Below are positions 24,426 through 26,010 of a DNA stretch of 40,547 nucleotides, piece by piece. The stretch comes from Escherichia phage MirsaeidiM_Esher2. The position numbers and the translations under genes were made by a program. The stretch lies in the sequence record PQ464628.1; one strand, 5' to 3'. The notes below the pieces were generated by a model. The model did no database searches. It was given only the letters and a program-made list of their open reading frames with translations, and had not been told where the DNA came from. Each line of letters begins with the position of its first letter. The first letter of the stretch is position 1.

Positions 24426-24448
24426 ACTAAACTATCACTATAGGGAGA
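24426..24448 (+). promoter_or_regulatory. phage-RNAP promoter, best consensus (ACTAAACTATCACTATAGGGAGA)
   Basis: +1..+6 GGGAGA; transcript 5' end can form an 8-bp stem; upstream of the major capsid gene. Confidence 0.85.
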
Positions 24449-24550
24449 CCAAGAGACAGACTCAAGGTTTCCCTATTACTTCAGTCCATACGGATTGGGC
24501 GCACAGTAAGTAATATACTTTATCTTTCAATTGAATAGGAGAATTATCAT

Positions 24551-25600
24551 ATGGCAAAAGTTCCGGGTCAGAAAGTTGGTACAGACCAAGGTAAAGGCAA
24601 CTCTGGTTCCGACGCTCTTGCGTTGTTCCTGAAGGTCTTTGCTGGCGAAGTCCTGACCGCATTCACTCGCCGCTCTGTAACTGCTGACAAGCATATTGTC
24701 CGTACCATTCAGAACGGTAAGTCTGCTCAGTTCCCGGTCATGGGTCGCACCTCTGGTGTGTATCTGGCTCCGGGTGAGCGACTGTCCGATAAGCGTAAAG
24801 GTATCAAACATACCGAGAAAGTGATTACCATTGATGGTCTGCTGACTGCCGATGTGATGATTTTCGACATTGAAGACGCGATGAACCACTATGACGTGGC
24901 TGGCGAGTACTCCAACCAGTTGGGCGAAGCTCTGGCTATCGCTGCCGATGGTGCGGTACTGGCTGAGATGGCTATTCTGTGTAACCTACCGGCTGCATCT
25001 GATGAAAACATAGCTGGTCTTGGCAAAGCGTCCGTACTTGAAGTTGGTACTAAAGCCGACCTGAACACTCCGGCTAAGCTGGGTGAAGCAATCATCGGTC
25101 AACTGACCATTGCTCGTGCGAAGCTGACCTCCAACTACGTTCCTGCTGGCGACCGTTACTTCTACACCACGCCGGACAACTACTCTGCAATCCTCGCGGC
25201 TCTGATGCCTAACGCTGCTAACTATGCTGCTCTGATTGACCCAGAGACTGGTAACATCCGTAACGTGATGGGCTTCGTTGTTGTTGAAGTCCCACATCTG
25301 GTACAGGGTGGCGCTGGTGAGACTCGTGGTGACGATGGCATCTCTATCGCTTCCGGTCAGAAACACGCATTCCCGGCAACTGCTACTGGCGACGTTAAAG
25401 TTGCTATGGACAACGTTGTGGGTCTGTTCTCTCACCGTTCTGCTGTGGGTACTGTGAAGCTGCGTGACTTGGCGCTGGAACGTGACCGTGACGTCGATGC
25501 TCAGGGCGACCTGATTGTTGGTAAGTACGCTATGGGTCACGGCGGCCTGCGTCCAGAAGCGGCAGGCGCACTGGTTTTCACAGCGGCGCTGGGGGGTTAA
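24551..25600 (+). CDS. 10: major capsid protein 10A (T7 gp10 homolog)
   Basis: 349 aa; LALFLKVFAGEVLTAF, KHTEKVITIDGLLTADV, AILAALMPNAANYAALIDPE, HRSAVGTVKLRDLALER, AMGHGGLRPEAAGA match recalled T7 gp10A. Confidence 0.97.
   Translation: MAKVPGQKVGTDQGKGNSGSDALALFLKVFAGEVLTAFTRRSVTADKHIVRTIQNGKSAQFPVMGRTSGVYLAPGERLSDKRKGIKHTEKVITIDGLLTADVMIFDIEDAMNHYDVAGEYSNQLGEALAIAADGAVLAEMAILCNLPAASDENIAGLGKASVLEVGTKADLNTPAKLGEAIIGQLTIARAKLTSNYVPAGDRYFYTTPDNYSAILAALMPNAANYAALIDPETGNIRNVMGFVVVEVPHLVQGGAGETRGDDGISIASGQKHAFPATATGDVKVAMDNVVGLFSHRSAVGTVKLRDLALERDRDVDAQGDLIVGKYAMGHGGLRPEAAGALVFTAALGG
25573..25579 (+). promoter_or_regulatory. candidate -1 ribosomal frameshift heptamer G GTT TTC
   Basis: Same heptamer and same position (last ~8 codons of 10A) as recalled for the T7 10A/10B frameshift. 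Confidence 0.55.
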
Positions 25601-25863
25601 CGACCTTTAAGGCCCTCTCTACAGAGGGTCCTACCTTAGAGACGTACAGTTCTACGGTGGGGACCAGCCTGAAGGTTGACTTCCCTGAGCTTTCAGATGT
25701 GACCGATTGGTCGCTGCTTGAGGTGACTACGCCTGATGGTGTTAGCTACTCCCGTAGAACCAACAGTCTCTACTTCAAGGCCACCTCTGGCGTGGAAGGT
25801 CTGGTGATTGTTGGGTATGACGGTTCGCCTGTGCGTTCCTTCAACGTATCTTTCACAAACTAA
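25579..25863 (+). CDS. capsid protein 10B C-terminal extension (reached by -1 frameshift)
   Basis: -1 frame open from 25525 to stop at 25861..25863; adds ~94 aa after Phe343; ORF-track entry 25657..25863 is the tail of this frame. Confidence 0.45.
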   Translation, partial: HSGAGGLTTFKALSTEGPTLETYSSTVGTSLKVDFPELSDVTDWSLLEVTTPDGVSYSRRTNSLYFKATSGVEGLVIVGYDGSPVRSFNVSFTN

Positions 25864-25866
25864 TTG

Positions 25867-25906
25867 AAACCCCTTGGGTGCCTTCGGGTGCTTGAGGGGT
25901 TTTTTG
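25867..25906 (+). terminator. intrinsic terminator after capsid gene (Tphi-like)
   Basis: Long GC/GU stem around a C(UUCG)G tetraloop (25882..25887) followed by TTTTTTG (25900..25906). Confidence 0.8.
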
Positions 25907-25920
25907 CTTAAGGAGGGACT

Positions 25921-26010
25921 ATGGTCCTTATTTACACATGGTTAGTACTATTCGTCTTATTCTGGGCGTACCTGCTGCCAAGCTCACCGTCTAGCCCCTA
26001 TGACTGTTAA
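25921..26010 (+). CDS. hypothetical 29-aa hydrophobic peptide
   Basis: Strong SD AGGAGGG 5 nt upstream; stop TAA overlaps the SD of gene 11; very short. Confidence 0.25.
   Translation: MVLIYTWLVLFVLFWAYLLPSSPSSPYDC

Follow-up and report, generated by a model that had tools for sequence, protein, structure and literature searches.

In phage T7, a larger minor capsid species is present at about 10% of the major capsid protein 10A. The frameshift behind it is the classical mechanism of T7 gene 10 and is already known; the T7 slip site is the heptamer G GTT TTC, identical to the one described here (PMC5009743), and it occupies the same Val-Phe codons shortly ahead of the stop of 10A. Ig-like domains have repeatedly been attached to phage structural proteins by frameshifting, and the T3 extension is Ig-like, whereas that of T7 is not (PMC5009743). 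In T3 and phiYeO3-12, the -1 frameshift adds a single Ig-like domain, and the T3 slip site, C CCA AAG at a lysyl codon, is unlike G GTT TTC. The 10B protein of phage Kvp1, arising at TTTTCA, was shown by mass spectrometry (PMC2579914). In K1F, the type species of the genus Kayfunavirus, the same heptamer leads to a short T7-type tail of 48 new residues (44 added triplets in PMC6277420); K1F phages carrying a g10b::gfp fusion are stable and fluorescent (PMC6277420), and the same frameshift has served to present Ig-like adhesins on K1F (PMC13370021).

We analyzed gene 10 of Escherichia phage MirsaeidiM_Esher2 (PQ464628.1) within the whole stretch of 40,547 nucleotides, hereafter called the window. 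Judged from its sequence, this phage is a K1F-like Kayfunavirus of the T7 family; the best match to the gene 10 region is ~96% identical, and ~200 phage records align over most of its length. By the same measure, its capsid gene is a clear homologue of T7 gp10A: the encoded protein is 70% identical to T7 10A and 97% identical to K1F 10A, matches the Pfam family Gp10A-like (PF21703, E = 1.3e-104), and matches the PDB capsid chains 9vvq, 7y23, and 2xvr (E = 5e-144 for 2xvr). The gene is preceded by AGGAG at 24537-24541 and ends with a TAA at 25598-25600. We consider it very probable that it is decoded in two ways, giving 10A and, via a -1 slip, a 10B protein that carries an Ig-like domain (Table 1). 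The same joined 10B CDS is annotated in a close relative, Escherichia phage Peacock (MK903279). The 23-nt equivalent of the phi10-like promoter is labelled "promoter phi" in the relative PE3-1.

Table 1 Features of the gene 10 region, in window coordinates
Feature	Position	Strand	Basis
Putative phage-RNA-polymerase promoter 5' of gene 10 (phi10 equivalent), ACTAAACTATCACTATAGGGAGA	24426..24448	+	T7-type core CACTATAGGGAGA
Gene 10A, major capsid protein, 349 aa, 36.4 kDa	24551..25600	+	ORF list; Pfam
Predicted 10B minor capsid protein, 437 aa, 45.9 kDa	join(24551..25579, 25579..25863)	+	-1 frame ORF
Slippery heptamer G GTT TTC	25573..25579	+	Direct sequence reading
Linker of the extension, residues 1-20, HSGAGGLTTFKALSTEGPTL	25579..25638	+	AlphaFold2 predicted disorder
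Second heptamer of slippery appearance, G GGG GGT, directly before the 10A stop	25591..25597	+	G6 run 25590-25595
RNA hairpin in the linker-coding region	25605..25639	+	Predicted folding, -13 to -18 kcal/mol
Ig-like beta-sandwich domain (predicted), extension residues 21-94, PHROG 7473	25639..25860	+	AlphaFold2; PHROG match
68-aa GTG ORF ("hypothetical protein" of gene callers)	25657..25863	+	ORF list
Tphi-type intrinsic terminator, GAAACCCCTTGGGTGCC-TTCG-GGTGCTTGAGGGGTTTTTTG	25866..25905	+	dG -25.2 kcal/mol, z = -5.05

Probable slip site and open -1 frame of gene 10

Relative to the 10A frame, the heptamer is in X_XXY_YYZ register, with G at 25573, GTT at 25574-25576, and TTC at 25577-25579; at this point, GUU is the P-site codon and UUC the A-site codon, and the codons after the slip are GGU UUU. 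Its GTT is the eighth codon before the 10A stop, as the initial annotation had it, and six sense codons (ACA GCG GCG CTG GGG GGT) separate the TTC from the TAA. The layout had also been described as exactly that of T7 gene 10, which holds for the identity of the heptamer but not for its position, as only three sense codons lie between the slip site and the stop in T7. The -1 frame, claimed to be open from 25525 to 25863, is indeed open over this interval by direct sequence reading and in the ORF list, its TAA being 25861-25863. The appended ~94 aa are likewise found: 10B would share residues 1-343 with 10A and continue with 94 new residues (343 + 94 = 437 aa), for a net gain over 10A of 88 aa and 9.5 kDa. 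The 53 residues quoted for T7 are correct as a net gain, its new residues numbering 56. The extension had been called long; its 94 residues stand, but such a length is not unusual, since T3 10B exceeds T3 10A by 86 aa. The terminator hairpin said to lie just downstream is also present.

The predicted junction reads ...PEAAGALVF/HSGAGGLTTFK..., with His344, after Phe343, as the first residue of the -1 frame part, and the first seven codons of the linker overlap the 10A tail. The predicted tryptic junction peptide of 10B is YAMGHGGLRPEAAGALVFHSGAGGLTTFK, and the C-terminal peptide of 10A is YAMGHGGLRPEAAGALVFTAALGG. Enrichment of the heptamer was not found in the whole window (3 copies vs 4.0 expected), and an 87-codon open run would arise by chance with P ~0.01 if base composition sets the expectation and with P ~2e-4 if it is set by how often stops occur in the -1 frame of coding regions. 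The significance of the arrangement therefore rests on its position and its conservation, both of which are strong.

By analogy with T7, most ribosomes would read 24551-25600 and release the 349-aa 10A, while a minority would slip by -1 at G GUU UUC with tRNA-Val in the P site and tRNA-Phe in the A site. This would be a tandem slippage from GUU UUC to GGU UUU, as in T7, after which the ribosomes would read the -1 frame to the TAA at 25861-25863 and produce the 437-aa 10B. Because 10B keeps the full HK97-fold body, it would be expected to co-assemble with 10A and to display the Ig-like domain on the capsid surface. At a T7-like efficiency (~10%), a virion would carry a few tens of 10B copies. 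Judging from the Ig-like decorations of other phages, the displayed domain may have a weak role in adhesion to glycans or surfaces, with the host surface, mucin, or glycans as weakly bound targets (PMC5009743; discussion in the Peru-2 preprint).

The extension domain and its relatives

The extension matched PHROG 7473 ("unknown function") with E = 3.5e-37, and no Pfam family was matched by the sequence from this phage. AlphaFold2, run with 18 homologues, predicted ~20 disordered residues (pLDDT ~50 for extension residues 1-20) followed by a seven-strand beta-sandwich (pLDDT ~90). The sole close match in BFVD was the "minor capsid protein" of Pectobacterium phage PP81. A profile search against 1.8 billion representative proteins gave only 13 hits, which were short orphan ORFs of the same kind and proteins with BACON, He_PIG, or Big_1 repeats. 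One BACON-repeat protein was matched by the profile at E = 8e-11, with an hhalign probability of only 32%, and matches to Big_3 were sub-threshold in 5 of the 18 family members (best E = 0.0025). No PDB entry containing the extension was found, as the PDB capsid entries end at the 10A body. Assignment to a Pfam family was rejected, the sub-threshold Big_3 matches and the weak BACON link being the only leads. For these reasons (no Pfam match, sub-threshold Big_3, weak BACON link), we describe the extension as a predicted Ig-like domain of an unclassified family, comprising ~74 residues after a linker of ~20 residues.

The extension is not a longer version of the T7 tail but a different domain, predicted to be folded. 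The tails of T7 and K1F consist of 48-56 charged, low-complexity residues (...ELTPxQxAARTRAAN...), in contrast to the 94 residues with a folded beta-sandwich predicted here. The T3 domain is Big_2-like, whereas the domain of this phage has no Pfam family, and homology between the two was rejected (best BLASTP E = 0.5). Counterparts are found in other genera that infect other hosts, namely Przondovirus (KP32/Kp9-like) and Pektosvirus (PP47), whose records mostly list the extension as a small ORF of its own. These phages encode the same domain family (~45% identity) after the same or nearly the same heptamer, with the same gene order and with a hairpin at the equivalent position after the 10A stop; their linkers differ in sequence and length, for totals of 96-103 residues. 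Compared with the 10B of relatives, a check that the initial annotation had suggested, the extension is homologous to those of Przondovirus and Pektosvirus and unrelated in sequence to the T7 and K1F tails and to the T3 domain. A mass spectrometry study of Kp7, Kp9, and Kp11 virions, in which the frameshift product was not sought, did not report a Kp9 10B, and no proteomic evidence for this extension class was found in the open-access literature.

To place these extensions, 110 related loci from GenBank phages and IMG/VR were surveyed, with counts made on non-redundant loci and a long -1 ORF defined as at least 45 codons. The capsid C-termini were sorted into types. Type A is the short charged tail of T7 and K1F (45-57 residues), and type B is the domain of this phage, found in part of Kayfunavirus, in Przondovirus, and in Pektosvirus. 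Type C comprises the T3-type Big_2 Ig domains, reached from either GGTTTTC or a lysyl site, and includes one tandem pair (176 aa) and one 303-aa extension with a GDSL-like segment. Type D has no extension. Since K1F is of type A and this phage of type B, and only the first few linker residues are common to their extensions (..V/L-x-T-F..), the payload has been swapped within Kayfunavirus.

Conservation, selection, and alternative readings

The heptamer GGTTTTCA was present in 59 non-redundant loci, with AGTTTTC in 2 and CGTTTTC in 2 more. It is invariant in alignment A2, which spans clades with saturated synonymous sites, and it is shared by T7, K1F, Przondovirus, and this phage (AGTTTTC in Pektosvirus), with the -1 frame open in each. 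Long -1 ORFs (at least 45 codons) followed GTT TTC at 61 of 63 loci, vs 6 of the 18 loci with GTC, GTG, or GTA TTC (Fisher p = 2e-8, uncorrected for phylogeny or shared ancestry). At the latter loci, the -1 frame is mostly open for only 11-36 codons; where it is longer, the T3-type lysyl site is used or the ORF happens to run into gene 11.

In comparisons with two moderately diverged relatives (L004 and L021), pN/pS in the extension frame was 0.24 and 0.16, respectively, vs 1.2-3.3 in the other two frames, which contained 5-8 stops. For pairs diverged enough to measure, dN/dS of the extension was 0.14-0.45. On these sequence comparisons, purifying selection on the extension acts in the -1 frame only. 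In each of the 454 phage records that contain it, the extension follows the capsid gene. Its total length varies by clade (94, 96, 91-94, and 103 residues), and the linker length differences among relatives are multiples of three only, so the frame to the heptamer is kept. Taken together, the conservation of the heptamer, its association with the ORF, the selection, and the frame-keeping indels support the programmed -1 frameshift that the initial annotation had proposed.

These data also bear on other ways of reading the locus. It is improbable, in our view, that the extension is an independent small gene, either the 68-aa GTG ORF or a longer one translated by termination-reinitiation, that encodes a free decoration protein. 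Most GenBank relatives do annotate a separate ORF of 64-87 aa ("hypothetical" or "minor capsid protein"), and in relatives of the PE3-1 type, the stop of 10A overlaps an in-frame ATG (TAATG), which would make coupled initiation possible; in this phage, however, the corresponding position is ACG, there is no ATG anywhere in the extension frame, and the 20 nt before the GTG at 25657 lack the Shine-Dalgarno sequence that the neighbouring genes have. The annotated starts vary by clade, amino acid conservation extends upstream of them, and purifying selection reaches the codons that precede each of the starts: for the 19 codons between the 10A stop and the GTG (extension residues 8-26), pN/pS was 0.07 (L021) and 0.37 (L004). 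Both the frame kept to the heptamer through the linker indels and the pairing of slippery codons with a -1 ORF also count against independent initiation. Given the lack of an ATG or Shine-Dalgarno sequence, the constrained linker upstream of the called starts, the variation of those starts, and the whole-codon indels, we argue from the sequences that translation enters the -1 frame from gene 10 and not by independent initiation, and we judge the 68-aa GTG ORF to be only the 3' part of 10B.

Entry from gene 10 could in principle take place mainly at G GGG GGT, with the conserved G GTT TTC as a lesser or parallel site, which seems very improbable to us. In the 10A frame, this second heptamer conforms to X_XXY_YYZ, it is directly followed by a stop codon, which is slow to decode, and the conserved hairpin begins 8-13 nt 3' of it. 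Against this, it is absent from 28 of the 28 relatives checked, in all of which the extension is conserved; moreover, after such a slip, the A-site tRNA-Gly that reads GGU would face GGG, a wobble G-G clash that follows from established codon-anticodon rules, and G-rich heptamers are poor shifters in E. coli. The two slips would give 10B proteins differing in only six residues, with predicted junctions ...VFHSGAGGLTTFK for G GTT TTC and ...VFTAALGGLTTFK for the G run. The G GGG GGT heptamer is probably specific to this phage and incidental, and it might serve as an additional way into the same frame. We give hardly any credence to the view that no extended protein is made in meaningful amounts and that the -1 frame is open merely as a relic or through a sequencing artefact. 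A natural deletion variant, in which the domain is truncated (L023/L042, one IMG/VR genome), fits a relic and suggests that the extension may be dispensable, T7 10B is said to have been found dispensable by Condron et al. in 1991, and the classic stimulator was not found 5-9 nt 3' of the heptamer. Yet only the -1 frame shows dN/dS values well below 1, the domain keeps ~45% amino acid identity over three genera with saturated synonymous sites, and hundreds of independent assemblies share the arrangement.

Other routes into the -1 frame were considered and rejected. P-site slippage at G GGY UAA as a general mechanism fits the type of this phage, but L024-type and Przondovirus sequences do not fit it. 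Ribosome collision, in which a ribosome paused at the 10A stop would drive the one behind it onto the heptamer, was set aside by inference, as the slip site is 4-7 codons away, which is too close for two ribosomes, and this distance varies. Transcriptional slippage was dismissed because only T4 and G6 runs are present, and such runs are too short for it.

RNA structures 3' of the heptamer and what the extension may mean

The terminator starts 2-3 nt past the 10B stop and consists of a 17-bp hairpin (25866-25903) followed by a T-run; none of 200 shuffled sequences was as stable. It is identical to the K1F terminator, and when aligned with the Tphi of T7, T3, K1F, and Kp9, it keeps AACCCCTTGGG...TGAGGGGTTTTT. 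The 10B ORF of T7 also ends right before the homologous Tphi with its CCCC motif, and this CCCC, more than 200 nt away from the slip site, reportedly takes part in the frameshifting of gene 10 (PMC5009743). In the phage studied here, the homologous terminator with AACCCC, its CCCC being 25871-25874, lies ~290 nt 3' of the slip site.

In the region 5-9 nt 3' of the heptamer, no convincing stimulatory pseudoknot or hairpin was found. The minimum free energy of 25573-25700 (128 nt from the heptamer) was marginally below that of shuffled sequences (z = -1.58), and the sequence directly 3' of the heptamer is not conserved. A hairpin was predicted further on, in the linker-coding region, with an inner stem pairing 25610-25618 with 25623-25632 around a CUAC loop. 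Counted from the heptamer, it is 25-30 nt further 3', which is too far for a classical frameshift stimulator; counted from the 10A stop, the spacing is 4-9 nt. In all three type B sub-clades, the 120 nt that follow the heptamer contain a hairpin as their most stable local structure. It starts 23-31 nt past the heptamer and about 10 nt past the 10A stop, a position shared by the sub-clades, each of which has its own hairpin sequence. In Przondovirus, the hairpin has 18 bp, with 99% of cells paired among 11 distinct sequences, and two pairs show compensatory double changes, which also alter the encoded linker residues. It is a doubtful proposition, offered tentatively, that the type B clade (part of Kayfunavirus, Przondovirus, and Pektosvirus) combines an unclassified Ig-like, possibly BACON-related capsid-display domain with a conserved post-stop hairpin located 4-10 nt after the 10A stop and not beside the slip site. 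If this hairpin tunes the 10A:10B ratio, it would represent a frameshift-control geometry undescribed for T7-like phages; it might then affect ribosomes that are terminating or have just shifted, or form pairs with the distal terminator.

These findings leave the known frameshift mechanism unchanged. What they add is the predicted Ig-like nature of this extension family, the evidence for its translation from gene 10, the payload swap within Kayfunavirus, and the conserved post-stop hairpin. In hundreds of T7-like genomes, the 3' part of the extension is listed as an orphan "hypothetical protein" or omitted, and the correct product of this mis-annotated region would be a frameshifted capsid protein. 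The capsid frameshift would act as a "socket" with interchangeable payloads in a single genus, among them a charged tail, Big_2 domains, the Ig-like domain described here, and tandem or enzyme-containing extensions. Natural display of an Ig-like domain could influence how well these phages adhere to mucus or capsule, how immunogenic they are, and how they behave in phage therapy.

Features around the capsid gene's end

An RNA hairpin follows the stop codon of the major capsid gene, 10A, and is conserved at the equivalent position in related capsid loci from GenBank phages and IMG/VR (see table). It begins ~10 nt 3' of the 10A stop and 23-31 nt 3' of the slippery heptamer, and its sequence is distinct from sub-clade to sub-clade, although its position is kept. 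The hairpin of Przondovirus, another genus carrying the same type of extension, has 18 bp, with 99% paired cells, and contains two compensatory pair changes, both of which alter amino acids of the linker.

The window also contains a G6 run that creates a second heptamer of the X_XXY_YYZ-like form. In its place, the related loci (28 checked) have TCAGCGGGT. Part of the window sequence, GGGGTT (25592-25597), is complementary to AACCCC (25869-25874) in the stem of the Tphi-type terminator.

In loci of the Escherichia phage PE3-1 type (L004, L022, and L029), an ATG in the extension frame overlaps the 10A stop, GGGTTAATGACC, whereas the window has ACG at this codon. Given this overlap, a free 87-aa protein could also be produced in the PE3-1-type relatives through coupled re-initiation.

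Features near the 10A stop and the terminator in the window
Feature	Position in window	Location and conservation
RNA hairpin	25605-25639	Conserved at equivalent position in L006, L007, L009, L049, L073, L096, L099-L106
G6 run forming second heptamer, G GGG GGT	25590-25597	Immediately 5' of 10A stop
29-aa ORF, very hydrophobic, MVLIYTWLVLFVLFWAYLLPSSPSSPYDC	25921-26010	Between Tphi-type terminator and gene 11

Annotation of the region in relatives

The region is annotated inconsistently among the GenBank relatives examined. Of these, only phage Peacock carries a joined 10B annotation; the others have an ORF of 64-87 aa, designated "hypothetical" or "minor capsid", or no annotation. The extension of CHX131 is 100% identical to that of the window, yet the region was left without annotation, and in U8 the label "minor capsid protein 10B" sits on an ORF of 10A length. 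The small hydrophobic ORF of the window is preceded by a strong ribosome-binding site (AAGGAGG), and its counterpart in Klebsiella phage phi1_146013 (L003, 1836-1925) is labelled hypothetical.

The capsid gene of Enterobacter phage 04_vB_Eclo_IJM (L005, OP272493.1) is annotated as several short CDSs, and the C-terminal capsid motif was not found in any frame of this locus. Because this breakage looks like the result of indel errors in the assembly, the locus was omitted from the analyses.

Variant extensions in T7-like loci

The T7-like capsid gene of L090 (IMGVR_UViG_3300034349_000001) has the heptamer GGTTTTT and a -1 extension of 303 aa, in which a Big_2-like Ig segment precedes a second one bearing a GDSL-type motif (FEGDSLTANE...). 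This suggests capsid display of an enzyme via frameshifting. The T3-type extension of L080 (IMGVR_UViG_651703078_000001), of 176 aa, contains two Big_2-like domains in tandem.

A deletion variant (L023/L042, IMGVR_UViG_2974604219_000001) has its extension cut at about residue 53, past which the frame continues through the region of the window's terminator and small hydrophobic ORF. Provided that the assembly is sound, this makes the Ig-like domain dispensable.
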